From Candidatus Poribacteria bacterium (GTDB lineage Bacteria; Poribacteria; WGA-4E; WGA-3G): 64,000 bases of DNA. Of this stretch, positions 21,258 to 37,246 are shown one piece after another. How positions within the stretch are numbered: position 1 is the stretch's first letter; every line of letters begins with the position of its first letter. The stretch spans positions 72,880 through 136,879 of the forward strand of contig JAJEGI010000108.1 in the NCBI GenBank assembly GCA_022819945.1, given 5' to 3'. The translations under genes were made by a program, and so were the position numbers. A model generated the notes under the pieces. The model saw only the letters and a list, made by a program, of their open reading frames with translations, searched no databases and was not told where the DNA came from.

Positions 21258-23675
21258 ATGTTTGAAAAAATAATGAAGTATCCCATTGATGTTTTTCGAG
21301 AAGGCGATTTTTCGTTTGGGGTACCGTTGCCAGGGCTTCTTATTGCCGTTCTGCTTGCCGCACTTGTTGCCGCTACGATTTGGGCATATCGGCGTACACA
21401 GGGACGTATTCAACGCGGGTTCCGCGGGTTCCTCATTTTTCTTCGGACAATCGTACTCTGTCTGCTTGCCTTTTGTCTACTCAAACCGTTCCTCACAATT
21501 TACCAAACCAATCCAGACGACTCCTATCTATTGGTAATGGTTGACCAATCCAAAAGCATGCAAATTACGGATTCTCCTGATTCAGAGACACGTTTGCAGC
21601 GCGTCAATCAGTTGCTCTTTGCGGAAGAGGAAGGTCTCCTTGAAAAACTGAACGCCAAATTCAAAGTACGACTTTTTGCGTTTGACACTACAGCAAAACG
21701 CATTTCCAGTCAGGCACTAACGCGGGCAGAAAGCGAAAACACCGACATCCCACAGGCGTTAAACGAAGCACTCGATGATTTGCAGGGAATCCCGCTCTCC
21801 GGTGCCGTTGTTTTAACAGATGGCGCGGATAGAAGCGGCACTGATATCACGAAATTCGCAATGCAAATTCGAGAACAGAAATTGCCTATCCACACCGTTG
21901 GAGTCGGTTCGGAAACAGGCAACCCAGACCTCGAAATCGTCAAATTGGACGTTCCCCGCACGGCAGAAGAAGATTTCCCTGTCGAAATATGGGCGACTGT
22001 AAAACGGAAAGGATTTAACGGTAAAAAGGTTAACCTCCAATTAAGAAACGACACACGGGTACTAAAAAGTGAGTCTGTTGACATGGATGAAGGCACTCCT
22101 TGGATACCGCAAATCCGTGGAACAGACGCAGCTCTTGATGTAAAAACAAAACGCGTGCTGCTGAAATTCACGCCTCGCCAAGCGGGGACCCAAAAATTTG
22201 AGGTACATACGGAGTTAGGAGAAACCGAAGCGGTGCCACAAAACAATACAAAAACGTTTTTGCTGAAGGTCGCCCCTACCAAACGTGTGAAAATCCTGTT
22301 TGCCGATGGCAAGCCGCGCGCTGAATTTGGGTTCATAAAACGGACGCTGAAAAAGGATCCAAATATCCAATTAACCGACCGGATCTTGACAAAACTCTCA
22401 GCTGATGGCAGCAGAAATTACCTCGGCACTCGCACCGCAACATCGCACGATTTTGATTTTTATCCAGATGATAAAGAGACGCTCTTCGATTTTGATGCTA
22501 TCATCTTAGGCAACGTGGATGCCTCCCAATTTACACCAGCGCAACTTGAAAATACACTTGAGTTTGTACGCACCCGCGGCGGTGGATTGCTTATATTAGG
22601 CGGTTCAAACTCCTTGGGTAACCACGAACTCGCTGGGGCCTATATCAACACGCCAATTGCGCAGTGCCTGCCAGTAGAATTGGAACTCGGACCCGCACCA
22701 ACACCAATAGCACCGAGGCGGCGCACTCGGTCCGTTACCGGTTCACAGTCCGCCCAAAATGAGTATAAATTGCAACTGACACCAGAGGGGAAGGTCGAAA
22801 ATTTGATGGCACTGGCTGACACACCTACCGAAAATTTGGAACGCTGGAAGATCTTACCCACGCTGAAAGGGTATAGTAAGGTGAAACGCGCGAAAGCAGG
22901 CGCACTGGTTTTGGCAGAACACCCAACCGATCGGAATGAATTCGGGAACCGGATCCTCATCGCAATCCATAATTATAACGCGGGACGCGTCATGGTATTT
23001 ACGCCACACACTTCCCGGCGATGGCAGATGATACCCTCCCACGAAAACGGTAATCAACGATTCTGGCATCAAGAGGACAGTCCGGAACGGTTCTGGCGAC
23101 AGGTTGCCAGATGGTTAACAACTGCACCGAAAGAACATATTCAGCTTGATATCGCGAAAACAGCTTACACGTTGAAAGAACCTGTTATAATTGAGGTTAC
23201 CGCCACAGACGAGCAATTCCAATTGACGAACAACGCAAGAGTCCGAGCCGTAGTCGTTGACGAAGCAGGAAAACGCAAAGAATTAAAACTTGAACAGGTC
23301 CTCGGTAAAGATGGACTCTACACGGCGCGTTTCATTCCAAATCGATTTGGCGAATACACCGTCACCGCAACCGGCACCCTTAACGGCGAAAACCTTGGCG
23401 AACAACAGACCCTTTTTGAGGTGAAAGCATCTTATGCCGAATTCAGTAACGCTGAACTTAACGCCGCCCTTCTTAAAACACTCGCTGAAGGGAGTGGTGG
23501 AAAGTACTATGCCATGGAAGAGGCAGCCCAACTCGTGAATCAGATCCCTCTCGTCGAAAGCGCGACATCAAAAATTACGGATGTTGACGTCTGGAATATT
23601 CCGCTCATTTTTGGAGCCGTGATCGCATTGCTTGGATTTGAATGGTTCCTAAGAAAACGGGGCGGCTTGGTATAA
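21258..23675 (+). CDS. BatA-like membrane protein with VWA-like and GATase1-like (DUF1355-type) domains
   Basis: Two N-terminal TM segments, LLVMVDQSKSM (VWA MIDAS-like), FDAIILGNVD...RGGGLLILGG and a C-terminal TM segment. Start placed at MFEKIMKYP (21258), which avoids overlap with the upstream gene. Confidence 0.6.
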   Translation: MFEKIMKYPIDVFREGDFSFGVPLPGLLIAVLLAALVAATIWAYRRTQGRIQRGFRGFLIFLRTIVLCLLAFCLLKPFLTIYQTNPDDSYLLVMVDQSKSMQITDSPDSETRLQRVNQLLFAEEEGLLEKLNAKFKVRLFAFDTTAKRISSQALTRAESENTDIPQALNEALDDLQGIPLSGAVVLTDGADRSGTDITKFAMQIREQKLPIHTVGVGSETGNPDLEIVKLDVPRTAEEDFPVEIWATVKRKGFNGKKVNLQLRNDTRVLKSESVDMDEGTPWIPQIRGTDAALDVKTKRVLLKFTPRQAGTQKFEVHTELGETEAVPQNNTKTFLLKVAPTKRVKILFADGKPRAEFGFIKRTLKKDPNIQLTDRILTKLSADGSRNYLGTRTATSHDFDFYPDDKETLFDFDAIILGNVDASQFTPAQLENTLEFVRTRGGGLLILGGSNSLGNHELAGAYINTPIAQCLPVELELGPAPTPIAPRRRTRSVTGSQSAQNEYKLQLTPEGKVENLMALADTPTENLERWKILPTLKGYSKVKRAKAGALVLAEHPTDRNEFGNRILIAIHNYNAGRVMVFTPHTSRRWQMIPSHENGNQRFWHQEDSPERFWRQVARWLTTAPKEHIQLDIAKTAYTLKEPVIIEVTATDEQFQLTNNARVRAVVVDEAGKRKELKLEQVLGKDGLYTARFIPNRFGEYTVTATGTLNGENLGEQQTLFEVKASYAEFSNAELNAALLKTLAEGSGGKYYAMEEAAQLVNQIPLVESATSKITDVDVWNIPLIFGAVIALLGFEWFLRKRGGLV

Positions 23676-23698
23676 GACATCAAAAAAGGAGTGAAGGC

Positions 23699-24187
23699 AT
23701 GACACAACAAGAACTTCACAAAATCACGCAGGGTATTCGCGCACCCGAACAAGTCTCCATGACATTGGCGGAATTTCTTGAGAACGATATAGACGGATAC
23801 GAATACGTTAAAGGAGAATTAGTGCCGATGTCGCCACCAACGAGAATACATAGCAAGGTTAATGTTAACGTTATCCGGCATTTGGACCGGTATGTACGTG
23901 AGAATCAGTTAGGGGAGGGCCATGTAGAAGCAACTTTTCAGGTCGGTGAACGTGCGCTGAAGCCAGATGTAGCGTTTGTTTCAACTTCCGGGCTTACTGG
24001 AGACGAAAACACAGGTTTCCCGATACCGCCCGATTTGGCGATTGAGGTGGTTTCACCGACAGACGTTCAGTGGTGTGTTGTAGACAAAGCGTTTGTCTAT
24101 CTGAACGCCGGAACCCGCCTTGTCTGGGTTCTGGATCCCCGCTCCAAAACGGTGACAGTTTATCGTTCCGATTTATCCGAAAACTAA
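23699..24187 (+). CDS. Uma2 (DUF820) family endonuclease
   Basis: YEYVKGELVPMSPP, KPDVAFVS and PDLAIEVVSPTD motifs. Start at MTQQEL, preceded by AAAGGAG. Confidence 0.85.
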   Translation: MTQQELHKITQGIRAPEQVSMTLAEFLENDIDGYEYVKGELVPMSPPTRIHSKVNVNVIRHLDRYVRENQLGEGHVEATFQVGERALKPDVAFVSTSGLTGDENTGFPIPPDLAIEVVSPTDVQWCVVDKAFVYLNAGTRLVWVLDPRSKTVTVYRSDLSEN

Positions 24188-24855: not shown

Positions 24856-26214
24856 ATGAACAATTCCTATAAAAACGTAATGTTCGTTATCGCTGACGAT
24901 TGGAGCCGGATCGCAAAGTGTTACGGAAACGATATCATCCGAACACCACACATCGATGCCTTCGCAGAACGTGGCGTCGTCTTTGATCACGCATTCTGAA
25001 CAAGTCCATCGTGTGCAGTAAGCCGCGCATGCATCCTTACCGGACAACACAGCCACACACACGGACAATACGGACATTGCCACGGAATCCACGGATTTCG
25101 CACACATGAATACATGCAATCCGTACCAAAGATTCTGAAGGCAAACGGATTCGCTACGGCGTGTATCGGAAAAAAACACGTCGAACCCAAGAGTGTTTAT
25201 CCATTCGATTTTGAACCGAGAGTCAATGCCCGGAGTCCGGTGGACATGGCAACAAAGGTCACACAATTTCTCGACGAGAATACAGATACGCCTTTTTATC
25301 TCCATATCGGCAGTACGCATCCACATCGAGCAGGCAAAGGATTCGGAAACGACCAGACGCCCGCAGGTATTCAACCCGGTTCCTATGCGCCGGATGAAAT
25401 CATTGTGCCGAATTTCCTGCCGGATGTCCCCGCTGTCCGTGAAGATCTCGCAGATTATTACGAAAGCGTCTCGCGATGGGATGCCGTCGTAGGCGCGGTT
25501 TTAGACGCACTTGACGCTTCTGGACGCGCAGACGAAACCCTCGTTTTTGTCACTACTGACCACGCGATGCCGTTCCCCGGCGCGAAGGCATCAAGCTTCG
25601 ATAGCGGACACCACTGCCCACTGCTGATTTCCAGTCCCACGCAACAAAAACACGGGTTCCATAATCAGGCACTCGTCAACTGGGTAGATTTCTGCCCAAC
25701 GATGTTGGATTGGTGTGGTGTTACGCACCCCGACGGAGATGACGCACTTCCGGGCAGGTCAATCCTATCCATCCTCGAAGACGACAGCGCACAACCGGGC
25801 AACGGTGAATGGGAGGAAACCTATTTCTCGCACTGCTTCCACGAAGTAACGAATTATTACCCGTATCGCGTCTTACGGGGCAGACGGTATAAATACGTCC
25901 GCAATCTGGCGTACCAACTGGAGACACCGCTCCCAAGCGACCTATTCCGATCAATCTCATGGACAGCCGTACGAGACGATAACGTCCAGCAACTCGGTGA
26001 ACGCCAGCGTACCGAGTTTCTACAACAGAGCCGTGAAGCATTGTTCGATATCCAGAACGACCCGGCGGAATCGCAGAACCTTATTGACGTACCGGAGTTA
26101 CAAGACACCGCCAATGAGATGCGCCAAAAAGTCATCGAATTCAGGCAGAGAACCAAGGATCCGTGGCTTGAGCAGTCCTTCCAAGAAGGCGAAACACAAC
26201 CATTTTTTGTGTAA
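24856..26214 (+). pseudogene. Sulfatase (N-sulfoglucosamine sulfohydrolase-like) interrupted by one in-frame TGA at 24997-24999
   Basis: AAAGGAGG SD and ATG at 24856. N-terminal VMFVIADDW, then HAF-TGA-TSPSCAVSRACILTG, in frame with the 366-aa tracked ORF (IGKKHV..VYPFDF, TTDHAMPFPGAKAS). There are no other stops between 24856 and 26214. Confidence 0.75.
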
Positions 26215-27348: not shown

Positions 27349-28587
27349 TTATTCCTGTGTCTGTCCAGCAACAGCAGATGCCCGCGCACCAACGCCGAGT
27401 ACCGCTAAAAATCCTTCCGAATCCGCATGATCAAAGTCACCGATAGCTTCCATCGACGCTGTCTCCTCAGAATAGAGCGAATGCGGTGCCCCACCCGCGG
27501 CGTAGAATGCTACATTCCCCTTGTAGAGGGCTACCGTGATAGTCCCACTCGCCAAGTCGGTTAGCGGCTGAATAGAAGACAACAACGCCTGCGTAGCAGC
27601 ATCAAACCAGTAACCTTGATAAATCTGTTCAGCGATCGTCGGTGCGACACTATCAAAGTGTCTGCGGGCACGTCTATCTAAAATCAGTTGGAGCAGATAC
27701 TCGTAACACTTCCCAAGCAATTCCATTCCAGGCGATTCATAAACGCCACGACTCTTAATCCCCACAAACCGATTTTCAACGGTGTGAATGCCGATACCGA
27801 TGCCGTTCCGTCCACCGATACGATTCGCCTCCGTCAGACTCTGAAGCGGTGTCACAGGACCACCGTCGACTTCAACAGGTGTTCCTCGCGCAAAAGTAAC
27901 GGTAAAGTGTTCGACATCATCAGGTGCGTCTTTCGGATGGACACCCATACCGGGATTGATAAACCCGGCAGGAGTCTTCAGCGATTCGAGCCGTCCGGCT
28001 TCATGTGTAAGTCCAAGAAGATTTGCGTCGGTTGAGTAGGGCTTCTCGTGTGTGGCAGTAATCGGCAAGTTGTGTGCTTGGCAGAAGTCTATCATCTCTT
28101 TCCTACCGCCAAACTTTTTGAGGAACGTCGGATCCCGCCACGGTGCGTACACAGAAAAGTGGGGGTTGAGCATATTCGTAGCGAGTTGGAACCGGACCTG
28201 ATCATTGCCTCTACCGGTTGCGCCGTGCGTTAAGATGGAAATACCGCGTTTCTCCATCTCCGGTAGGAGTGCCTTCACTGTGACGTGCCGAGCGATGCCT
28301 GTCGTATTCCAATAGCCGCCTTCATACATCGCTTGGCACTGGATAAGACGGATGCCGTCTTCGGCAAGCGCGTCTTTCGCATCTACAACGATAGCGTCTT
28401 CGGCACCACACGCCAACATCCGCTCCCGAATTTCGGAAACGTCCCGTTCATCGGGCTGGCCGAGATCCGCTGTAAAACAGACGACGTTGACCCCGTTATC
28501 GACTAACCACTTAGTGATGGTGCAACTATCCAAGCCACCCGAAACAGCGGCACCAATAGTTTTCCCTTTTAATGCATCAATATTCAA
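27349..28587 (-). CDS. argG: Argininosuccinate synthase
   Basis: AVSGGLDSC P-loop-like motif, GATGRGNDQVRF and IGIKSRGVYE. Confidence 0.95.
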   Translation of the reverse strand: MNIDALKGKTIGAAVSGGLDSCTITKWLVDNGVNVVCFTADLGQPDERDVSEIRERMLACGAEDAIVVDAKDALAEDGIRLIQCQAMYEGGYWNTTGIARHVTVKALLPEMEKRGISILTHGATGRGNDQVRFQLATNMLNPHFSVYAPWRDPTFLKKFGGRKEMIDFCQAHNLPITATHEKPYSTDANLLGLTHEAGRLESLKTPAGFINPGMGVHPKDAPDDVEHFTVTFARGTPVEVDGGPVTPLQSLTEANRIGGRNGIGIGIHTVENRFVGIKSRGVYESPGMELLGKCYEYLLQLILDRRARRHFDSVAPTIAEQIYQGYWFDAATQALLSSIQPLTDLASGTITVALYKGNVAFYAAGGAPHSLYSEETASMEAIGDFDHADSEGFLAVLGVGARASAVAGQTQE

Positions 28588-28684
28588 AAGCAGTCTCCAA
28601 AGTATTATGTTGAGTTATAGCGGAATTATACCACCTTTCGTCGCAGCTTGCAAACCAATATTGAGATGTTCAACAAAGATGTAC

Positions 28685-28721
28685 TTGACAATGCATCCGA
28701 TTATATTGCATAATAATGCAA
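28685..28721 (+). promoter_or_regulatory. Candidate promoter (TTGACA-18 nt-CATAAT) with overlapping palindrome TTGCAT-AATA-ATGCAA
   Basis: The hexamers and the 16-nt palindrome at 28706-28721 were read directly from the sequence. It lies about 180 nt upstream of the 1006-aa ORF, in the divergent argG intergenic region. Confidence 0.4.
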
Positions 28722-28901
28722 ACGGGACGACGGCACCTGCTCCATCCAGAGTAACAAACCTAAAAACAGAAAATAGCGAGACCTTTCTCACCAACTTTTC
28801 ATAAATGACGTTAAGTTCACAATTTCCAAACGACGCTCTCAAATTGTTTTTAAGGTTTCTAAAAACCGATAACGTCCACTCTCTATGGAGATTTTCTCTA
28901 T

Positions 28902-31900
28902 ATGCAATCCGTAAAGGACATTATCCAACAGTGCCATGACCAGCGACGAAGAGATCTGCAGCAGCGCGAGACGATTGTCTCACCCACATTGCACGGTGAG
29001 TACCCTTACCATTATATTGTTTATTGTGCGCGTCAGCACCCGTTGCTTTTACATGACCTCGAACAGGCAAATATTTCGTTTATGCCGATTGGACAGGCAC
29101 CCTTCGATCGGGGGCCAGCGTATTGTGGCGGCACGCGGCTCTTAAGACGACAAGGCACACTCAACTGGGAACCGAGACGATGGTTCTCGTCGTGGGGGAT
29201 TCAGGTCTATACAGGAACGCCATCCGCGCGTGACGGGGCGAACTGGCACGACATTGAGTTCACCTATCAGGCGATCCGAGACGCACCCGATGCCGTCGTT
29301 ACATGTGTAGACGCGCTCGTCAACGCTGTTATGAACCCACTCCTCACCTTACGCAAAGATGGAGGCTTGCGCTTTTCGTGTCGAGTCCCGGACTATCTTC
29401 ACTCAAACACAACGGATGCAAGGCAGTACGTTTATAAGTACCTACCCGATATAGACCACCGCGATCGTGAGATCTACGTTGAGATTGTTGGTGGTAAAGG
29501 CTACACGCGCTGGGACGCTCGCTACGAGATTCTTACAGGCAGTCTTTTAGCCCCGCCTATCATTTCTAAAGACGTGCTTTTCGCGTTTCTCGATGTTTTG
29601 CGAGAACTCCAGCATGAACCCGCTCCGGCATCGGAATTAGACCTAATAGATGAAGAACTTGTGGATACACAGGATTTCGACGATTTCGATGTCATAGAAT
29701 CGTTAGAAACAGAACAAGTTGTGAATGAAAGTCTCCTTGCAGTACGACGCGGGGAACTTTCTCCGATTGGAATCAAACGACCCAGACCGCTCCTTGAAAA
29801 AGTGAAACACACTGCTGTGGAAGATCAGAGGAACCTCTCTGAACGCGAAGCCCGTATTCTTGGGATTATCACGGGTTTAATGAGCACTGAAAAGAAACGT
29901 GAAATCGAAGCCACGTTTCTCAATACCGAACCTATATGGATCAACGCGAATACCGCACACGATGCTGAAAACGTAGAACAGTATTATGAAGAACTGGGTG
30001 TTTCAGTAGGACGTTGGAAACCGAGAAACTATCGCTGGGAACAGGCGGAGTGGATACCTATTGCTGAACGGATGAAGAATCCTTTCGCGCGGGGAAACGT
30101 CTGCGAAGATGCCAAGAGATGTGATGCCTTAGCGCAGAAAGGCGGTGATCCGAATAAAAGTATCTGCCCAAGTTGTCCGGTTTATAATGCGTGTCAGGCG
30201 CGCGGGTATCTTTCTCAATTTGAGACACTCAAGGAAAAGCAGGTCATTGTGTCCGATATTCCAAACCTCTTTCTCGATCAGCGGTACGCGGCACTGGTTG
30301 AGCGGTTGATTATGCCCGGTCGAATCTGTATTATAAACGATTCCGAATCCCAACTCACGAAACTCTTTTCAGAGCATCATCTGTCAACCGAAATTCTTGA
30401 AGGCTGGCTCATTAATTGGAGCAGTGCAGCCTTGGGTCAATTCGCGAAAACACTGCTGAACGCTATTCGGATCACAGACAGTCAACATGGCGATATTGCC
30501 AAGCGGGTTCGCACTGTTGTTCAGGCGTTTGAAAAGTTAGCAGATAGCATTGTTCAGCAGATGTCTCAGGTAAATTGTACAGATAAAGAGGGACACCAGA
30601 TTGCAATAGATACTGATAGTGCAATCCTGCTTGGGGCCTTGGACATATCGACCTCAGAAAACATAGAGAAACTTCCAAATGTGTATCGCGACTCGGAATG
30701 GACGTTATGGCATCAGCTGAAGACATTTTTTGCCTATTACACCCGCGATATGGATGCACCGATGTTTGTCGATGACGGGATTTTGCGGTTCTGGTTACCG
30801 CCAAGAATTCATCAAGAGATTCAGCACCTTGTATTCATATCACCAGCGTTCTCGGAAGATAGTTTTAAAAAAGTGTTTCCTGAAGAAACTGTTTCGGTGA
30901 GATGGGTTGAATCGCAGGAAACATCACTTTCAGGGAATAAGGTTTTTCAACTACGGAGCGCACCACATATCTCCTATGCAATCGCAAACTACGAGGTTAA
31001 GTGGGATGTGTTTAGCCTTTCTGAAATTGCAAGTCGCTTTTTTCGCGGTATCTATCAAGAAATGAAACAACACCCAGATCGCAATCATGTCGTTATCTCA
31101 AGCACAACCACGAGATTGATGTTGAAAAATGTTTTCGATAGGATTATCAGCTACCACGATCTTATCAAAGACGCACCAGCACATCCTGAGGACTTGCGAT
31201 CTACTTTTGAAGCCGCCGATCTTTACTACGACCGCATCAATGTTCTACAATCCATTTTTAAGGCTGCTGATGTTGTCTGGATCGTTGGTACGCCTTATTG
31301 GCCCCCAAAATTCATCTGGGAACAAGCGAAAATCCTGTTTGGAAATCAAGTGGAACCGCTAAATTATAACTTGACAATGAATCCCTATCAATTTGAAGAT
31401 GAACGGATACAGGCACTTTACGAACAGAATGCTATCGGGGCACTGACACAGATCGTCCGTATCGCTGGATTCAATGAATCATCAGGCAAAGTACTGGTTC
31501 TTAACACGGCTTTGCGGGTCCCCTCAGTCACCGATGCACCAGAGATAGAATTGTTTGATTGGGAAGACTTTGAGCTCGCTGGCGGATTGGATGAACTTTC
31601 AGAGACAATTCGGATACGTGAGGAATACGAGACAGAACAAGCGAACATGGACGCCTCGTGGAGCCGAAAACGCGTTGAATATTTGCTCGGTGTTTCTAAA
31701 GCACAAGCGAACCGTATCTTGATGAGGTTGAGGGGCGGTAAACTTGAGCGGATCCCATTTCATGTGCAGATTTTAGAGATGCTCTCGGATGGACAGAAAA
31801 CAACATCTGAAATTGTTGAAGCAATTGAGGGGAATCCGGGTGCCATTAAAAACGAACTCACCTATCTTGTAGAATCGGGTGAGATTGTGAGGATCCGGCG

Positions 31901-31922
31901 CGGGGTCTATGCACTCGCATAG
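28902..31922 (+). CDS. Large orphan protein: AEP primase-polymerase-like N-domain, C-x2-C-x5-C cluster, C-terminal winged helix
   Basis: Uninterrupted 1006-aa ORF. WGIQVYTG...WHDIEF / RKDGGLRFSCRVP / VEIVGGKGYTRWDARYEIL resemble AEP motifs I-III. CEDAKRC-x15-CPSCPVYNAC. The C-terminal ILEMLSDGQKTTSEIVEAIEGNPGAIKNELTYLVESGEIVRIRRGVYAL is wHTH-like. No Walker A motif was seen. Confidence 0.7.
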   Translation: MQSVKDIIQQCHDQRRRDLQQRETIVSPTLHGEYPYHYIVYCARQHPLLLHDLEQANISFMPIGQAPFDRGPAYCGGTRLLRRQGTLNWEPRRWFSSWGIQVYTGTPSARDGANWHDIEFTYQAIRDAPDAVVTCVDALVNAVMNPLLTLRKDGGLRFSCRVPDYLHSNTTDARQYVYKYLPDIDHRDREIYVEIVGGKGYTRWDARYEILTGSLLAPPIISKDVLFAFLDVLRELQHEPAPASELDLIDEELVDTQDFDDFDVIESLETEQVVNESLLAVRRGELSPIGIKRPRPLLEKVKHTAVEDQRNLSEREARILGIITGLMSTEKKREIEATFLNTEPIWINANTAHDAENVEQYYEELGVSVGRWKPRNYRWEQAEWIPIAERMKNPFARGNVCEDAKRCDALAQKGGDPNKSICPSCPVYNACQARGYLSQFETLKEKQVIVSDIPNLFLDQRYAALVERLIMPGRICIINDSESQLTKLFSEHHLSTEILEGWLINWSSAALGQFAKTLLNAIRITDSQHGDIAKRVRTVVQAFEKLADSIVQQMSQVNCTDKEGHQIAIDTDSAILLGALDISTSENIEKLPNVYRDSEWTLWHQLKTFFAYYTRDMDAPMFVDDGILRFWLPPRIHQEIQHLVFISPAFSEDSFKKVFPEETVSVRWVESQETSLSGNKVFQLRSAPHISYAIANYEVKWDVFSLSEIASRFFRGIYQEMKQHPDRNHVVISSTTTRLMLKNVFDRIISYHDLIKDAPAHPEDLRSTFEAADLYYDRINVLQSIFKAADVVWIVGTPYWPPKFIWEQAKILFGNQVEPLNYNLTMNPYQFEDERIQALYEQNAIGALTQIVRIAGFNESSGKVLVLNTALRVPSVTDAPEIELFDWEDFELAGGLDELSETIRIREEYETEQANMDASWSRKRVEYLLGVSKAQANRILMRLRGGKLERIPFHVQILEMLSDGQKTTSEIVEAIEGNPGAIKNELTYLVESGEIVRIRRGVYALA

Positions 31923-32020
31923 GCAGAATCTGCTTTTTACTTTTCACAGCACATTTTTCGCGCAAAAATTCATCAAAAATAACATTTTTTGCAATTTTTT
32001 TACAAAAATTGAATTTTTTC

Positions 32021-32049
32021 TTGCAAAATAGAATTATTTCATGTATAAT
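32021..32049 (+). promoter_or_regulatory. Sigma70-type promoter TTGCAA-17 nt-TATAAT
   Basis: Read directly from the sequence. The predicted start, about 32056, is 3 nt before the first hairpin module. Confidence 0.5.
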
Positions 32050-32058
32050 TTATTTAAC

Positions 32059-32172
32059 ATGACTGAAATCAATCAATTATTCACAAGCCATTATGATTTA
32101 AGTCATATAGAATTCAAAAACTGAAATCTATTCATATATCATACATCATGATTTCAGTTATACAGAATTCAA
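32059..32172 (+). repeat. Two tandem hairpin modules (ACTGAAATC arm - about 20-nt loop - GATTT(C/A)AGT arm - ATA(T/C)AGAATTCAA tail)
   Basis: Module 1: 32059-32071 pairs with 32094-32106 (13 bp, 1 mismatch). Module 2: 32119-32128 pairs with 32150-32159 (10 bp). Both are followed by ATAYAGAATTCAA. Confidence 0.65.
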
Positions 32173-32412
32173 GCGGAGATCTTGGCGAGCAGCAAAAAGG
32201 AAACTCCAGAAGCGCATCCTCTCTGTTGCTCGCTAACTCCTCTTTAAACCACCCCGGTGAATATGTTCTCACCTCCTACAGATTGGAATATTTGTTGAAC
32301 CCACACTACATTAAACTAAAGTTGGGACAATTTGTGTTGCGTTTTCAAGAAACCGTGTATTTCTCCACCATTTTCGCACAATCCCTTGCGACTCTAATGA
32401 TTCGGGAAACCT

Positions 32413-32441
32413 TTGACAAGCACTCTCAGCAATGTTATAAT
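32413..32441 (+). promoter_or_regulatory. Perfect extended sigma70 promoter TTGACA-17 nt-(TGT)TATAAT
   Basis: Read directly from the sequence. It faces the KTSC remnant and the DUF433/DUF5615 pair. Confidence 0.6.
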
Positions 32442-32550
32442 TGTGAACAAGAACATACCCGTGTTTGTATTTTTTCTTAGACGAGGTCCGGGGCCTCTGA
32501 CCTTCAAACCACCTATGAGATAACATATAAATTCACAGCGGAGGAAAAAC

Positions 32551-32640
32551 GTGAAACGTTATGGAAACCGTCACGGAAACTCAGGCATTGCTGCCTATGA
32601 AGAAGGCTCTGATTTCATCAGACTCCGGTTCACGATTTGA
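32551..32640 (+). pseudogene. KTSC-domain remnant (30 codons)
   Basis: GGAGG SD and GTG start. The product VKRYGNRHGNSGIAAYEEGSDFIRLRFTI resembles only the first half of a KTSC domain. Confidence 0.3.
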
Positions 32641-32665
32641 TTAACCCAAAAAGGAGATACAGGCA

Positions 32666-32878
32666 ATGGATAGAATAACTTTTAATTCAGAGCAGTGCGG
32701 TGGACGTCCGTGCATTCGAGGGATGCGGATTCGGGTAACAGATGTCTTAGATTTGCTGGCAGCTGGGCTCTCTTTTCAAGAAATTCTTGACGAAATGCCA
32801 CTGTTGGAATACGAAGACATTGTCGCTTGTCTCCAATTTGCCTCACAAAAAATTAACCATCCTGTAATTGCCGCATGA
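32666..32878 (+). CDS. DUF433 antitoxin-like protein
   Basis: CGGRPCIRGMRIRVTDVLDLLAAGLSFQEILDEMPLLEYEDIVACLQFA is the DUF433 signature. Its stop overlaps the next start (ATGA). Confidence 0.85.
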   Translation: MDRITFNSEQCGGRPCIRGMRIRVTDVLDLLAAGLSFQEILDEMPLLEYEDIVACLQFASQKINHPVIAA

Positions 32879-33216
32879 AGTTTTGGATTGATGTGCAACT
32901 TTCTCCGGCACTTGCCCCTTGGCTCAATGCAACTTTCGGAGTACAAGCTTTTTCACTTGAGTGGCTTGGCCTCCAACAGGCTAGCGATAAAAGAATCTTC
33001 TCCGCCGCTCGCGAGGCAAATGCAGTTGTCATAACTAAAGATCAAGACTTTGTTCACCTGTTAAATCAGCTAGGTCCCCCACCACAAGTCGTCTGGATAA
33101 CTTGTGGCAATACATCAAATGCGGAAATGCGTAAGATCCTCCAACAAAATTTCCCAGAAGTCTTTCTACTCTTACAATCCGGTCAACTACCCAAGTCTAA
33201 AGACTTGGGCTTGTGA
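32875..33216 (+). CDS. DUF5615 (PIN-like) toxin-like protein
   Basis: MKFWIDVQLSP...ASDKRIFSAAREANAVVITKDQDF...VVWITCGNTS is typical of DUF5615 partners of DUF433. The last 8 codons fall inside the hairpin at 33190-33212. Confidence 0.8.
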   Translation: MKFWIDVQLSPALAPWLNATFGVQAFSLEWLGLQQASDKRIFSAAREANAVVITKDQDFVHLLNQLGPPPQVVWITCGNTSNAEMRKILQQNFPEVFLLLQSGQLPKSKDLGL

Positions 33217-33383
33217 ACATCCGTAGCCACACGGGGACCCACAAGTTAAACAGTTTTCTACAGTCATATATCGCGGTATCTGTGTGTGGCAACACGAACA
33301 ATGTTTCGGATGCTCCCCAAGTCTGATTCACTTTGGATACTGTGATCTGGATGGGGCAATATATACCCGAAAGGGGTTTACGC
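33213..33383 (+). ncRNA. Candidate omega-RNA scaffold region upstream of isrB
   Basis: Positional inference only: IscB/IsrB guide RNAs are encoded immediately 5' of the ORF. Local stems are visible (CTTGTG...CACAAG at 33210-33245). No covariance model was run. Confidence 0.3.
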
Positions 33384-34415
33384 ATGTTAGTGGTAGTCGT
33401 AGACGAGAATCAACACCCTCTAATGCCTACAAAGCCTTCAAGGGCAAGGCGTTGGATACAATCCGGTAAAGCCACGCCTTTTTGGAAGAATGGTATCTTC
33501 TGCGTCCGCCTAAACGTTGACCCTTCAGATACCGAACTCCAAGAGATCGTCGTCGGTGTAGACCCCGGCAGTAAGAAAGAGGGCTTTACTGTGAAGTCGG
33601 CATCTCACACCTATCTCAACGTTCAGGCAGATGCCCACAACAAAGTCGGTAAGAAGGTTGAAAAGAGACGAGACCTTCGCAGAGGCAGACGTTCACGGAA
33701 GTGTCCGAATCGAAAGAACAGGACGAACCGTCTTGCGAATAAAGACCGTATCCCCGCAGGCACGCGCGCAAGGTGGGATTGGAAACTCCGTATTCTTGAT
33801 TGGTTGTCGAAACTCTATCCGATCACACACGTCTGTGTTGAAGATATTAAGGCACGGACGATAGAACGTGCGAAGCAGTGGAATCAGTCGTTTAGTCCAC
33901 TTGAAGTCGGTAAGCAATGGTTCTATGGTGAAATACAGAAGCGTTGGCACTTGCTAACCCTTCAAGGGTGGGAAACCCAAGAGATACGCGATAGATTAGG
34001 TCTCAAGAAGTCGTCAAAGAAACTATCAGAGACTTTTGACGCACATTGCGTAGATTCTTGGTGTTTAGCGTATCATAGTGTTGGCGGTGATAGCACACCT
34101 GAGAACACGGCTATATTCTGTATAGCCCCGATACGGATAAAACGCAGAGAACTGCACAGACAGCAAGAATCAAAAGGTCGGAAGCGTTCACGACAAGGCG
34201 GAACGGTATTAGGCAAAGGGTTGGTCAAAAACACATTGGTCCGACACATTAAATACGGACTTACCCGACTTGCTGGTGTTAATGCAAAAGGTTTGTTTTC
34301 CATATACAACTTAGAAGGCAACAAACGCTTAACAACAGGCGCAAAGCAGTCTGATTTCAGAGTGCTAACACGCCTTAACTTTAACTACAGGAGCGGGCAT
34401 TCCTCCCAAACTTAA
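33384..34415 (+). CDS. isrB: IsrB-like RuvC nuclease (IscB family lacking HNH)
   Basis: PLMP motif (ENQHPLMPTKPSRARRW), RuvC-I VGVDPGSKKEGF, Arg-rich bridge helix KRRDLRRGRRSRKCPNRKNR, RuvC-II HVCVEDIK and RuvC-III FDAHCVDSWCLA. Only about 65 aa with no HNH signature lie between RuvC-II and RuvC-III. Start at MLVVVVDE, preceded by GAAAGGGG. Confidence 0.8.
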   Translation: MLVVVVDENQHPLMPTKPSRARRWIQSGKATPFWKNGIFCVRLNVDPSDTELQEIVVGVDPGSKKEGFTVKSASHTYLNVQADAHNKVGKKVEKRRDLRRGRRSRKCPNRKNRTNRLANKDRIPAGTRARWDWKLRILDWLSKLYPITHVCVEDIKARTIERAKQWNQSFSPLEVGKQWFYGEIQKRWHLLTLQGWETQEIRDRLGLKKSSKKLSETFDAHCVDSWCLAYHSVGGDSTPENTAIFCIAPIRIKRRELHRQQESKGRKRSRQGGTVLGKGLVKNTLVRHIKYGLTRLAGVNAKGLFSIYNLEGNKRLTTGAKQSDFRVLTRLNFNYRSGHSSQT

Positions 34416-34478
34416 AAGTTTGGGCTTCCTGCCCGAAGATTAGGTGAATCTTTGATAGAAATTACTGCTACCTCGTAA

Positions 34479-34742
34479 ATCAAAGGACTAACCGGGCGAC
34501 AAGTTTGGTACCGTTTCAGTGATCGACAGATTCGCAATGAAAGACATTACTACACAACCCTGAACTATATCCATTACAATCCGACAAAACATAATTACGT
34601 GCAAAAACCAAAAGATTGGACCTGTTCAAGTCTACATTGGTATGAAAAGCACTTCGGGATTGAATGGCTGCGAGACCTTTGGCGAACACATCCTGTACGG
34701 GATTATGGAAAGGGATGGGATTGGCAAGGTTCAGGTTCGTAG
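34479..34742 (+). pseudogene. C-terminal remnant of an IS200/RAYT-type Y1 (HUH) transposase
   Basis: The open frame lacks a start codon: GRQVWYRFSDRQIRNERHYYTTLNYIHYNPTKHNYVQKPKDWTCSSLHWY. It contains the Y..YIH.NP tyrosine region, but the HUH half is absent. Confidence 0.65.
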
Positions 34743-34818
34743 TAAGGCGATAAACAGGCCTACTATAAGCGTAGAGTTACACCATTTCTGAATAACCGGT
34801 TCTCCTTAACGGAAAACT

Positions 34819-34898
34819 GGCTCGTAGTAGCGCAATTCATTGCGCTTCTTTGATTACGCCTCAAGAGCACCGGTTCGTAGTAGCGCAATTCATTGCGC
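34819..34898. repeat. Two REP-like copies GGYTCGTAGTAGCGCAATTCATTGCGC (34819-34845, 34872-34898)
   Basis: Direct repeats, each containing the palindrome GCGCAAT-TC-ATTGCGC. A partial third copy (GGTTCGTAGTAAGGCG) lies at 34734-34749, overlapping the transposase remnant stop. Confidence 0.75.
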
Positions 34899-35053
34899 CT
34901 CTTTTACATGCGAACCTACTTTTCAGATTTAGTATTATTTATGTCCCTCAATCACGTTACATTAAGGTCAGCAAACTTCACCACTCTACAAGATCAAAGA
35001 ATCGGAGATTAAACTTATAACCCCACTGCTAAACGACAGAAAGGAAAACAACA

Positions 35054-35542
35054 ATGAGACAGAAGAAAAAATCGTTAACGTGCTTCGCTTTTTTGGGATT
35101 CCTCTTATTCTGTGTAGTAACTGCGACAACTGCACAGACCCCTCAACAAATCGCCCAAAAAGCCTTCCGTTCTACGGTGCTGCTCGTCATGGAAGATGCC
35201 AACGGTCAACCACTTTCATTGGGTAGTGGATTTTTCGTCAAAGATGACCAGATTGCGACGAATCTCCATGTTGTAGAAGGTGCCGCAAGAGGCTATGCAA
35301 AATTGGTCGGCAAAGAGACAAAGTTCAATATTGAAGGCTACACCGCCATTGACGAGAAACGCGATCTGATAATCTTAAAGGTTGCAGCTTTTGGCACACA
35401 GGCTATTTCGCTTGGTAACAGCGATTTTGCACAAGTTGGAGAAACGGTTTACGCTGTCGGCAATCCACGCGGATTAGGGGTAAGCGGCGGGAAGTTCACA
35501 TGGGTATACGATTACTTAGGTTATAACCCAAGTTGCTACTAA
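35054..35542 (+). pseudogene. Truncated trypsin-like (S1C/Trypsin_2) serine protease
   Basis: Signal peptide, His region (IATNLHVVEG) and Asp region (DLIILKV). The ORF ends just after GNPRGL, before the GxSGG catalytic-serine motif, and no continuation is seen in other frames. Confidence 0.6.
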
Positions 35543-35583
35543 CAGATTTTGGAAGGTTCGATGAGGTCCTCAGTCCACTTTCC

Positions 35584-35650
35584 TCACCCCAGAGGGGTGA
35601 TATATCTATAGAAAACAGTGTATTTAACCTCTTGCACTCCAGCGGAGTGC
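35584..35650. repeat. Pair of similar 7-bp hairpins TCACCCC-AGA-GGGGTGA-TAT and GCACTCC-AGC-GGAGTGC-TAT
   Basis: Read directly at 35584-35600 and 35634-35650. They have the same geometry and the same 3' TAT(A/G)T tail. Confidence 0.5.
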
Positions 35651-35764
35651 TATGTGTATAAATAGGTGGCAACTTGCGTTAGGATAATGTAAATATGTGT
35701 CTTGTAAAATTACCAATAATCGTTTATTCTGAATTACCACATTAGTTTTACACTGTAAAAACCC

Positions 35765-35793
35765 TTGACATCCTTTCCAAAACTACATACAAT
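35765..35793 (+). promoter_or_regulatory. Sigma70-type promoter TTGACA-17 nt-TACAAT
   Basis: Read directly from the sequence, 39 nt upstream of the ATG at 35832. Confidence 0.5.
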
Positions 35794-35831
35794 AAAACCT
35801 CAATACAATATATCGTATACGGAGGTTTCTC

Positions 35832-36464
35832 ATGCCCACAATCGAAAAAGTTTTTGACGCCCCAGGTCCACAACCCAACGGAATGCAAGCCACCGAAGAC
35901 GGACTCTGGATTCTCGACCAGCAGACCAACGAAGTCCATCTCGTCTCTTACGACGGTGCTGTGAAAAAGACACTCGCTACCGGCTCCGACAGAGGCAGCG
36001 GTATTACGGACACAGGCGACACGCTCTGGCTTGCCTCCACCTACAGTTGCGAAATCCTATCAACCGACCCAGAAAGCGGTGAGACACTCGCATCTTTCGA
36101 GACACCCGGCGCAGGACAGACCGGGGCACACGGCTTGGAATGGCGAGACAATAAACTCTGGATAGCAGTACCACCCTCTGCCACCGTTTATCAGGTAGAT
36201 GTTGAAGACGACTTCAAGGTGATCCATACACTTCCCGCCCCCGGTGACCGACCTCACGGTATCGCATGGGTAGGCGACGACCTCTGGTGCGTTGAGACGA
36301 ATCATCGCGCAATCTTTCATCTTGATCCAGAAGATGGCAGCCATCTGAACAAAATTGAGATACCCGAACCGCACCCCGAACCCCACGGAATGACTTATTG
36401 GGACGGATATTTCTGGTATTGTGACGCACATACGACAGCAGTGTGCCGCGTCCCGTTATCCTAA
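35832..36464 (+). CDS. Beta-propeller repeat protein (glutamine-cyclotransferase/NHL-like)
   Basis: Repeated (D/G)xLW(I/L/C) blades (DGLWILD, DTLWLAS, NKLWIAV, DDLWCVE, GYFWYCD). The family assignment is tentative. Confidence 0.45.
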   Translation: MPTIEKVFDAPGPQPNGMQATEDGLWILDQQTNEVHLVSYDGAVKKTLATGSDRGSGITDTGDTLWLASTYSCEILSTDPESGETLASFETPGAGQTGAHGLEWRDNKLWIAVPPSATVYQVDVEDDFKVIHTLPAPGDRPHGIAWVGDDLWCVETNHRAIFHLDPEDGSHLNKIEIPEPHPEPHGMTYWDGYFWYCDAHTTAVCRVPLS

Positions 36465-37246
36465 TGGAAACCACCGGTAGACGCCTGAATATGGGCGCGA
36501 ACCCCGCCGCAATGAACATGGCGATTGATGAGGCTATCCTACTCGCGCAGAAGGAGCAGCCAAACCCGACGCTGCGCTTTTACGACTGGTCATCCCCAGC
36601 TTTCAGTTTCGGCTACTTCCAAGATATTGACGCTGAAGTTGACATAGAGGCGTGCCGATCAGACGGCATTGAACTCGTGAAACGGATGACAGGTGGTGGA
36701 ACCGTCGTACATGGGTGGGAATTGACCTATACATTAATTCTGCCACGCGGTGCCGGAGAAATGCGTATCTCTGACGCTTACGATGGCATTGGACAATCTC
36801 TCGTCAAGGCATTTCAGAAACTCAGCATCCCTGCGCAGTGCTACACCGCATGCTCCGATGCTACTCAAACTGCCCAGAACATCTGTCTGACGAATCCCGC
36901 TGAACACGATGTGATGGCTGACGACAAGAAACTGGCAGGTGTCTCCGTGAGGCGTAATCGAAACGGAATTATGTTTCAAGGTTATATCTCCTTAGATATG
37001 CCACCTCCTGCCATCCTCGCACGCGTTTCAAAAGATCCTGAGGTCCAAAAGATACTGCGCGAAAAATCGACCGCTATCAACGCAGATGGACGTTCCATAA
37101 CCCGAAACATGCTTATCCAAGCAATATCTGAAACATTTAATCTCGGAATTGCGTTTCATTCAAGTACATTCTCATCGGCAGAACTTGCACAGGCAGAAAC
37201 CTTGGTTGATACCAAGTATGCGACCGCAGCGTGGAACTTTGGATGA
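36464..37246 (+). CDS. Biotin/lipoate A/B protein ligase family protein (LplA/LipB-like)
   Basis: NMAIDEAIL, LRFYDWSSPAFSFGYFQ, KRMTGGGTVVHG and KKLAGVSVRR motifs. The ATG overlaps the preceding stop (TAATG). Confidence 0.75.
   Translation: METTGRRLNMGANPAAMNMAIDEAILLAQKEQPNPTLRFYDWSSPAFSFGYFQDIDAEVDIEACRSDGIELVKRMTGGGTVVHGWELTYTLILPRGAGEMRISDAYDGIGQSLVKAFQKLSIPAQCYTACSDATQTAQNICLTNPAEHDVMADDKKLAGVSVRRNRNGIMFQGYISLDMPPPAILARVSKDPEVQKILREKSTAINADGRSITRNMLIQAISETFNLGIAFHSSTFSSAELAQAETLVDTKYATAAWNFG

Follow-up and report, generated by a model that had tools for sequence, protein, structure and literature searches.

Proteins in which a primase is fused to a helicase and helicases of the XPD type are each well known already. 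The primase-helicases of plasmids, phages and integrative and conjugative elements (ICEs), exemplified by pRN1 ORF904, Prim-Pol/D5 and BT4734/VirE, combine an archaeo-eukaryotic primase (AEP) domain, a helicase of the SF3/D5, DnaB or MCM kind and a winged helix, in this order. Here we describe a gene of Candidatus Poribacteria, an uncultured sponge-symbiont phylum, whose product keeps that order of modules around a helicase core of another type. It was found in a window of 64,000 nt (assembly GCA_022819945.1, contig JAJEGI010000108.1, positions 72,880-136,879, forward strand; all coordinates below are those of the window). The coding sequence lies at 28902-31922 on the plus strand, and reading of the open reading frame (ORF), an AlphaFold2 model and the ratio of nonsynonymous to synonymous substitution rates (dN/dS) describe a protein of 1006 amino acids with an AEP-like domain, an acidic linker, an XPD-like core of superfamily 2 (SF2) that is predicted to be dead and holds a cysteine cluster, and a C-terminal winged helix-turn-helix (wHTH). 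With a probability of roughly 0.55, we consider it an exapted, catalytically eroded primase-helicase of a mobile element, which now acts as a non-catalytic nucleic-acid-binding protein tied to a conserved element directly downstream of its gene.

The comparison with described systems shows likeness and difference in each case. The plasmid, phage and ICE primase-helicases likewise have a PriCT-2 or zinc-ribbon module after the primase and occur in mobile contexts, both of which are found among relatives of the present family, but the helicase here is of the XPD/DinG-type SF2 with a cysteine cluster, and the window copy is chromosomal and lacks the helicase motifs, the zinc module and any match to an AEP profile. 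The SF3 helicase that follows the Prim-Pol domain in pRN1 ORF904-like proteins is missing, and no SF3 or DUF3987 match was found in the window protein. In XPD-type helicases a 4Fe-4S domain lies between motifs I/Ia and II, and the Arch domain follows motif II. The window protein shares with XPD, Rad3 and DinG (including CasDinG) the two RecA-like domains, the four-cysteine insert and a second insert in the place of the Arch domain; it differs from them in the spacing of the cysteines, in being fused to a primase fold and a wHTH, in lacking the ATPase motifs and in having no detectable link to them at the level of sequence profiles. The UL8 protein of herpes simplex virus (HSV) is an inactivated polymerase-fold subunit of the helicase-primase. 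As in pseudo-enzymes of the UL8 type, a replication fold is here kept under selection after catalysis was lost, presumably for binding or as a scaffold; the window gene differs in that both modules of one polypeptide are eroded and in that it stands solo, with no identified partner. BT4734-like AEPs, such as the PrimPol AgaPP associated with prokaryotic Argonaute (PMC11724360), also have a basic residue in motif II (GLK there, GGLR here). In bacterial AEPs of the All3500 family the C-terminal domain has been described as remotely SF2-like (pVOG1685/9714, UL9-like; Kazlauskas et al. 2018, PMC5862659), and these fusions may be related to the present family, although the passages of that paper on All3500 mention no Fe-S-type cluster, poribacterial expansion or dead copies; the window protein gave no match to Pfam Herpes_ori_bp and its core none to PHROG profiles. 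The combination of an AEP fold, a CHC2 ribbon, an XPD-like SF2 core with a cysteine cluster and a helix-turn-helix (HTH) was not found described in the literature that was searched, and searches on primase-XPD/DinG fusions and on poribacterial primases returned nothing relevant.

The ORF opens with ATG and runs through 1006 codons with no internal stop. Its full-length model, built from a 98-sequence alignment, has a mean predicted local distance difference test (pLDDT) score of 86.4 and a predicted template-modelling (pTM) score of 0.73, and three modules are recognized in it, namely an AEP fold, an XPD/Rad3/DinG-like SF2 core and the C-terminal winged helix. Scans of the window protein against Pfam, NCBIfam, PADLOC and PHROGs returned nothing outside the wHTH, and a sequence search of the PDB returned nothing significant; two family profiles compared with PDB sequences gave only weak matches at motif I (UvrB and DEAH helicases, E ≥0.02) and a weak match to WhiB. 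The view taken from the letters alone (hereafter the sequence-only reading), that the whole protein belongs to no named family, is thus upheld, and every motif it quoted is present at its place in the protein. Its description as an orphan is not: a word-indexed search gave at least 909 homologues among the candidates scored, an exhaustive search placed the family in 383 clusters at 50% identity, and 394 relatives were found in a scan of one genome per species. The best 80 of these 394 carry titles of Candidatus or uncultured Poribacteria, except two named "uncultured bacterium". All family records that bear a name come from Candidatus Poribacteria and are called "hypothetical protein", bar one that is labelled after an AbiEi-type wHTH. 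No relatives were found in IMG/VR or PLSDB, and the window holds a single copy of the gene.

The central part of the protein (approximately residues 277-895) has its best Foldseek matches in the PDB with XPD (2vsf, E 4e-11), Rad3, DinG and CasDinG (E 4e-11 to 1e-8), followed by UvrB. The top 11 matches are all chains or complexes of XPD, Rad3, DinG and CasDinG (E 4e-11 to 2e-7), and the Foldseek alignments give template-modelling (TM) scores to the target of 0.37-0.53 over approximately 620-780 aligned columns. The Pfam profiles DEAD_2 and Helicase_C_2 gave no match. On the basis of Foldseek and motif comparison, the N-terminal part of helicase domain 1 is assigned to residues 275-495 (29724-30386, plus strand). 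It is followed, in the model and in the alignment of the full-length protein with XPD/DinG (approximately 670-780 columns), by a helical insertion (residues 496-640; 30387-30821, plus strand), which by position only corresponds to the Arch domain of XPD, and then by the rest of helicase domain 1 and by helicase domain 2 (residues 641-895; 30822-31586, plus strand), which were delimited by motif comparison with relatives and include the conserved stretch LFDWEDFE (residues 884-891).

Comparison with relatives shows what this core has lost. Counts given below for the orthogroup refer to 78 orthologues and those for distant members to 147 sequences unless stated otherwise. At motif I the distant members read ADTGTGK[NTS] (G in 143/147, K in 144/147), where the window has the degenerate Walker A ITGLMSTEKK (residues 323-332; 29868-29897, plus strand). 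The hhhD[ED] of motif II (D in 122/147) has become CIINDSES (degenerate Walker B, residues 476-483; 30327-30350, plus strand), and MSATL at motif III has become FISPAFS (residues 645-651, within 30822-31586, plus strand). At motif VI, QAxGRARL in distant members (the two arginines in 120/147 and 116/147) corresponds in the window to LTQIVRIAGFNE (QIVRIAG; residues 848-859; 31443-31478, plus strand), in which both arginines are lost. In 78/78 orthologues the glycines of Walker A, the aspartate of Walker B and the two arginines of motif VI are gone, motif III is degenerate throughout the orthogroup as well, and neither a Walker A nor a Walker B motif is present in the window copy. Because motifs I, II, III and VI are degenerate here and intact in distant relatives, the helicase core is predicted to be complete in fold but catalytically dead, and it would neither bind nor hydrolyse ATP. 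The sequence-only reading had seen neither an NTPase motif nor a helicase in the protein; it was right about the motif, but the helicase is there as a dead XPD/DinG-like SF2 core.

What has not been lost is the cysteine cluster. It has the form C401-x20-C422-x2-C425-x5-C431 (residues 401-431; 30102-30194, plus strand) and lies between the degenerate motifs I and II; conservation and position make it a putative [4Fe-4S] or other metal site. C401, C422, C425 and C431 are found in 78/78 orthologues and in at least 122/147 distant members, C407 is variable, and just after the cluster GYLSQ (residues 435-439, plus strand) is conserved. The C-Xn-C-X2-C-X5-C spacing is the pattern of WhiB, AddB and Cas4-type [4Fe-4S] sites, and an Fe-S site is plausible here as well, although the match between WhiB chains and the family profile is weak as a sign of homology (E 0.22). 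The cluster had been noticed from the letters, together with its likeness to an Fe-S staple, and it proves to be conserved with that spacing; only the first spacer needs correction, as it is x14 (CEDAKRC-x14-CPSCPVYNAC) and not x15.

A second loss concerns the segment between the N-terminal domain and the core. In the window it is an acidic linker with 13 Asp or Glu among 31 residues (residues 244-274; 29631-29723, plus strand), predicted to be disordered (pLDDT <50), and distant relatives have at this place a module of approximately 115-130 amino acids with a CHC2 zinc ribbon. Between N-domain and core the orthologues have an insert of 53 residues, where relatives have a median length of 115-126. 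The pattern C-x4-H...C-x2-C (CHVTKHRKSHG...FCHNC in one distant member) occurs in 108/147 distant members. No orthologue has it, nor does any poribacterial paralogue; the paralogues keep the insert, in which the zinc-ribbon ligands are gone. To judge from these alignments, the orthogroup of the window has deleted the zinc ribbon and carries the 31-residue acidic linker in its place.

The N-terminal domain (residues 1-243; 28902-29630, plus strand) has the AEP/Prim-Pol fold according to its own model and to the comparison of this model with viral models. Modelled alone it reaches a pLDDT of 91.1 and a pTM of 0.89. The best Foldseek match among the viral models of BFVD has an E value of 6e-8 (TM 0.59-0.60, root-mean-square deviation approximately 4 Å, about 220 columns), and there are 34 matches at E≤1e-3, of which those that bear a name are almost without exception primase-polymerases or D5-type primases. 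No significant match was obtained in the PDB (E ≥0.14); 8 of the top 14 weak matches there are AEPs (NrS-1, the LigD polymerase domain, CAPP). Motif I is D117-I-E119 in WHDIEF (residues 115-120; 29244-29261), motif II is G154-G155-L-R157 in KDGGLRF (residues 152-158; 29355-29375) and motif III is V-E194 in YVEIVGG (residues 192-198; 29475-29495); these are followed by the family-specific W-D205-A-R207-Y-E (29508-29531), all on the plus strand. In the modelled secondary structure D117-x-E119 ends a strand (113-120), G154-G155-L-R157 opens the next strand of the sheet and V-E194 lies inside a strand, which we take to be the positions expected for AEP motifs I, II and III. D117 is present in 77/78 orthologues and E119 in 75/78, and distant members mostly have D-L-D at motif I. 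The canonical histidine of motif II (sxH) is replaced by R157, and this arginine is invariant across the family.

No AEP profile of Pfam, NCBIfam or PHROG matches the window protein, and hhalign found no similarity between the family N-domain and the BT4734-like domains of relatives (probability 0.2%). As profile comparison links the domain to no AEP family, it is assigned to the AEP superfamily by its modelled fold and its motifs. The sequence-only reading had proposed an AEP-like N-domain with D-I-E in motif I and Arg for the His of motif II, and had named structure modelling and Foldseek as a check; both substitutions are confirmed, and the check recovered the AEP fold with no assignment to a well-known family. 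The putative third metal ligand tells a different story from the rest of the site. Position 194 is Glu in 113/128 distant motif-intact members, but among the orthologues it is Glu or Asp in approximately 41/78 and Lys, Arg, His, Asn, Gln or Leu in approximately 37/78; it switches even between orthologues of 80-90% identity, and the two closest to the window (90% identity) have Lys. Taken with the deleted zinc ribbon, the unconserved position 194 suggests that the orthogroup is now selected for something other than priming.

The protein ends in the wHTH that had been proposed from the letters (residues 950-1006; 31749-31919, plus strand). Both Pfam (AbiEi_4 at residues 983-1006, E 1.9e-6; HTH_5 at residues 955-993, E 4.9e-4) and the modelled order of three helices and two strands (H953-961, H968-974, H979-992, E995-999, E1002-1005) bear it out. 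PADLOC matches it weakly and only to the AbiEi wHTH (E 0.002 or worse). The name AbiEi antitoxin, which NCBI gives to one orthologue, was rejected, as only 24 residues of the wHTH match AbiEi_4; an AbiEi system was rejected likewise, there being no conserved protein-coding neighbour downstream.

The relatives tell where such a protein may have come from. In five distant members a BT4734-like AEP recognized by Pfam (E down to 8.6e-23) precedes the same core, with an HTH behind, and four of the five also have PriCT-2 between AEP and core; a true primase module therefore fills the same slot. In contrast to that module, the motif III acid is not conserved in the orthogroup of the window. Members with intact motifs have the neighbours Rep_3, UvrD and restriction-modification genes (L082), ParA/RHH, an integrase fragment and transposases (L083), AAA_25 (L081), or HU genes, transposases and a Type ISP enzyme (L080). 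Because the intact relatives sit in such plasmid-like contexts, the ancestor was most probably a mobile-element primase-helicase, a judgement drawn from context. The layout of primase, helicase and wHTH, which had been compared to pRN1 ORF904-like replication proteins, thus holds for the ancestry, but the helicase is of SF2 and not of SF3.

Between these intact copies and the window gene stand the poribacterial paralogues. Many of them are solo genes whose motifs have decayed to differing degrees. Others form arrays: at loci L052 and L059 two short forms of approximately 790 amino acids are followed by two forms of approximately 1150 amino acids with Walker A and B intact; L067 has the same layout with a third gene that lacks both Walker motifs; and a three-gene version is found at 4785-15379 of L004. 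The short forms lack Walker A and the cysteine part of the core, and the gaps within the arrays measure 0.3-1 kb. The arrays may represent a hetero-oligomeric system. In one further subgroup of approximately 1270 amino acids (P0259, P0335-P0351) only the N-terminal AEP-like domain is common (about 32% coverage); the C-terminus is a different long one, and the first residue of motif I is often Ser.

The orthologues proper (72-90% identity) occur once in each of approximately 25 species-level genomes, in a chromosomal slot between argG and a Vgb-lyase gene that is syntenic across species. The two loci with called genes (L001, L002) have the gene order of the window: GATase1-like, sulfatase, MoxR, argG (minus strand), the gene itself, a variable region, Vgb-lyase, LplA and FGE-sulfatase. 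The argG-proximal upstream sequence is common to 11 of 18 further aligned orthologous loci, these being the ones whose sequence reaches far enough upstream, and the Vgb-lyase gene lies 0.4-5.7 kb downstream in 17 loci (15 distinct). Against three orthologues dN/dS is 0.17, 0.17 and 0.15, with single regions at 0.10-0.29 and synonymous divergence (dS) of 0.45-1.8. The gene is under purifying selection and, being single-copy and syntenic with low dN/dS, is neither a relic nor recently mobile. The suspicion of a degraded element at this locus is accordingly not borne out.

The gene is preceded by its own promoter, as had been supposed: TTGACA-18-CATAAT at 28685-28714 (plus strand) scores 11/12 in a consensus scan for sigma-70-type promoters, and comparison with the upstream regions of at least 15 orthologues shows that its -35 and -10 are conserved together with the bases that flank them. 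Alignment also shows a 20-bp imperfect palindrome, GATGTACTTGACAATGCATC, centred on the -35 (28678-28697); it reads GATGTATTTGACAATTTATC in orthologues, its conservation extends past the hexamer, and it is a possible operator. By contrast, the palindrome TTGCAT-AATA-ATGCAA over the -10, which had been taken for the operator, is specific to the window and absent from orthologues. A leader of approximately 180 nt with conserved sequence blocks follows (28722-28901, plus strand), and a GGAG Shine-Dalgarno sequence, also conserved, stands about 12 nt before the ATG. RNAalifold detected no conserved structure in the leader (-2.8 kcal/mol, 0 compensatory pairs). At one orthologous locus (L024, 7680-11400) the region upstream of the gene's -10 has been replaced.

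Directly behind the stop codon lies the AT-rich, repeat-bearing tract that had drawn attention from the start; it is conserved and stays linked to the gene even after rearrangement. In 23 syntenic loci (22 distinct) the sequence immediately behind the orthologue is 68-83% identical to the segment of the window from 31924 to approximately 32282. This segment contains first an AT-rich region (31940-32019, plus strand; inverted repeats I1, I4 and I8) of CAAAAATTG-type palindromic units, which read ATACAAAAATTGTAT in orthologues and occur in 1-3 copies in an 18-locus alignment; they are candidate binding sites. Next comes a promoter, TTGCAA-17-TATAAT with TG before the -10 (TTGCAA-17-TGTATAAT; 32021-32049, plus strand; scan 10/12), whose -35 and -10 columns are almost all identical across the 18 loci (L027 has TTGAAA at the -35). 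Folding and alignment then mark out a candidate small structured RNA of approximately 195 nt (32056-32250, plus strand). The alignment divides it into a hairpin 1 of 12 bp (ATGACTGAAATC...GATTTCAGTCAT; 32059-32106), a related hairpin 2 that is present in 12/18 loci (32110-32170) and a long terminal stem-loop that is rich in GC (32171-32244) and has a T-rich run behind it, all on the plus strand. The minimum free energy of 32056-32268 is -55.4 kcal/mol (z -5.5; 0/200 shuffles as stable). The consensus fold has -40.4 kcal/mol and 47 pairs; since there is so little variation in the stems, no more than 4 of these pairs are compensatory. A variant with one hairpin (L012) has z -6.4 and another locus (L026) z -3.7; in both the sequence of the terminal stem differs and the layout is kept.

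The linkage reaches beyond the syntenic loci. In a branch of 59-60% identity (L003, L026, L043) the neighbourhood is different, hairpin 1 is kept and the terminal hairpin is of another sequence; the promoter is kept in L026 and L043 and degraded in L003. With this branch counted, approximately 26 of the 27 orthologous loci that are informative have the element, between about 20 and 380 nt behind the stop. Matches to an nhmmer profile of it follow practically all orthologues, and none lies near a paralogue or a distant member. The exact hairpin pattern occurs once in the window. In a metagenome scan with a short 18-nt pattern, 1 of 120 matches held the complete element, directly after a family gene; the other 119 lacked it and are most likely due to chance. 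Rfam has no family for the element in 28000-36500, and a mir-761 match at 32180-32238 (minus strand; 26.9 bits against a gathering threshold of 82) was set aside as a chance match to the terminal hairpin. An ORF that overlaps the element (32148-32480, 110 amino acids) was rejected as a gene, having no Pfam match and showing indels in orthologues that are not multiples of three. Because of the promoter, the hairpins and the intrinsic terminator, a small RNA gene of approximately 130-195 nt would fit the element better than an origin of replication; its inverted repeats may also act at the DNA level.

Taken together, these features can be ordered into one scenario. The ancestor would have had an AEP domain, a CHC2 ribbon, an XPD/DinG-type SF2 helicase with the four-cysteine cluster and a C-terminal HTH, and presumably served to bind, unwind and prime an origin. 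The lineage of the window would then have settled in the poribacterial chromosome and lost the zinc ribbon, all ATP motifs of the helicase and the conservation of the motif III metal ligand, and purifying selection would have retained the three folds, the cysteine cluster and the wHTH. Unwinding and priming may thereby have been given up for ATP-independent binding of nucleic acid. The wHTH would bind DNA sequence-specifically, at the CAAAAATTG palindromes or at the imperfect palindrome at the gene's own -35, and the dead core with its metal cluster would serve as a static clamp on single-strand DNA or RNA. The protein would then regulate the promoter of the element, or bind the hairpin RNA that may be transcribed from it.

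Several points weigh against this scenario. The Fe-S assignment derives from position and spacing only. With stems as uniform as those of the element, covariation is no proof of an RNA, and at L024 the orthologue is intact but the element has been deleted, with only its 3' tail left after the stop. The linkage of gene and element could reflect conservation of the neighbourhood plus one shared rearrangement, with no common function. As to catalysis, the third ligand could be D205 in place of E194, and conservation of the active site would then be complete; the window copy nominally holds all three AEP motifs (D117, E119, R157, E194); and a basic motif II residue would be compatible with activity by analogy with BT4734-like enzymes, which have Lys at this place and are active as primase-polymerases (PMC11724360). 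Since all three motifs are kept and a basic motif II is tolerated, the window copy could still prime or polymerize. The protein would in that case be an active primase-polymerase, for example in damage tolerance or repair, with the dead core and the wHTH for DNA binding or targeting. The confident AEP fold speaks for this, as do the conservation of D117, E119, G154, G155, R157, D205 and R207 in 75-78/78 orthologues and the dN/dS of the N-domain (0.097), the lowest of any region in the comparison with L002. It is difficult to reconcile with a basic or neutral residue at position 194 in nearly half of the orthologues, with the deletion of the zinc-ribbon/PriCT-type module and with the missing profile matches to AEP families, and we consider it unlikely, if still the best surviving of the alternatives.

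A different use of a dead replicase would be that of a decoy against plasmids or an incompatibility factor: a copy fixed in the host would bind the origins or the partners of related elements that come in and block their replication, which would amount to dominant-negative immunity. The plasmid-like contexts of motif-intact relatives would provide the targets, and two named distant-profile members are labelled Poribacteria; the many chromosomal paralogues with differently decayed active sites resemble conflict-driven families, and the DNA-binding wHTH has been retained. However, the orthogroup is strictly single-copy and syntenic, purifying selection acts on it uniformly and diversifying change is not seen, PADLOC gives no defence match beyond the wHTH, there are no conserved defence genes among the Pfam-scanned neighbours, and the downstream element is left unexplained, all of which makes a decoy improbable.

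The locus was first viewed as encoding a protein for replication or integration that belongs to a degraded or integrated element; the AT-rich tract would then be its origin, with iterons, hairpins or ssi-type sites for primase recognition. Some plasmid primases do recognize hairpin DNA signals (RSF1010 RepB'). The ancestry as a mobile-element replicase fits this view, and so does a tract of direct and inverted repeats that adjoins the gene and moves with it. We nevertheless hold it to be very improbable: the helicase appears dead, no integrase was seen (no search was made for att sites or element borders), the locus has stayed in place across species at dS of 0.45 to 1.8, no shift in GC skew was found at the locus, and the tract itself has an invariant sigma-70 promoter and a terminator-type hairpin whose sequence changes with its structure kept. 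A decaying relic, a pseudogene in the making that has lost its NTPase motifs, its zinc ribbon and the conservation of motif III together with any function, is in practice refuted by the selection analysis (dN/dS 0.15-0.17 at dS up to 1.8), with the full-length ORF in at least 25 genomes, the promoter and Shine-Dalgarno sequence conserved and the cysteines invariant.

The surroundings of the gene and its element are less constant. Between the element and the conserved Vgb-lyase gene lies an insertion hotspot (approximately 32300-35830), which in the window contains a DUF433/DUF5615 (PIN-like) toxin-antitoxin (TA) pair at 32666-33216, an RRXRR/HNH gene (IscB-like?) at 33333-34415 and a trypsin-like ORF at 35054-35542; orthologous loci have a PemK TA, TnpB or nothing there, and the gap ranges from 431 nt (L014) to 5.7 kb. 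Of the neighbourhood that the sequence-only reading proposed to compare among homologues, the hairpin tract proves to be conserved; the TA, insertion-sequence and RRXRR genes beyond it are variable insertions. On the upstream side, the sulfatase ORF at 25114-26214 encodes 366 amino acids and its Pfam match begins at profile position 81; since orthologous loci carry 452 and 444 amino acids, the window copy may be 5'-truncated or frameshifted. A Uma2-family endonuclease gene at 23642-24187 is also present in L001 and absent from the same slot in L002.

The exaptation scenario admits one extension, to which we give less credence than to an active primase and which we regard as doubtful at present: gene and element may form a dedicated module of protein and RNA (or of protein and hairpin DNA) that goes back to a plasmid replicase; a PrimPol-fold protein with a dead helicase and an Fe-S cluster would bind its own structured small RNA. 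If this were true, the RNA could be template, primer or specificity determinant, the cluster could sense redox or iron status to control the RNA, and the pair would be a new system associated with non-coding RNA (ncRNA), with a logic like that of the reverse transcriptase-ncRNA pairs of retrons and defence-associated reverse transcriptases (DRT) but based on an AEP.

What does the locus tell about the family as a whole? On the one hand, an unannotated family is defined, in which an AEP fold is joined to an XPD/DinG-type helicase with a cysteine cluster and to an HTH. On the other hand, its members form a graded series, from full copies in plasmid contexts through multi-copy chromosomal arrays to a single-copy eroded gene, and thereby provide a clean natural example of a replication enzyme that is turning into a pseudo-enzyme under selection. 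The previously undescribed RNA-like element that is linked to this gene is a testable handle on what exapted replicases do.

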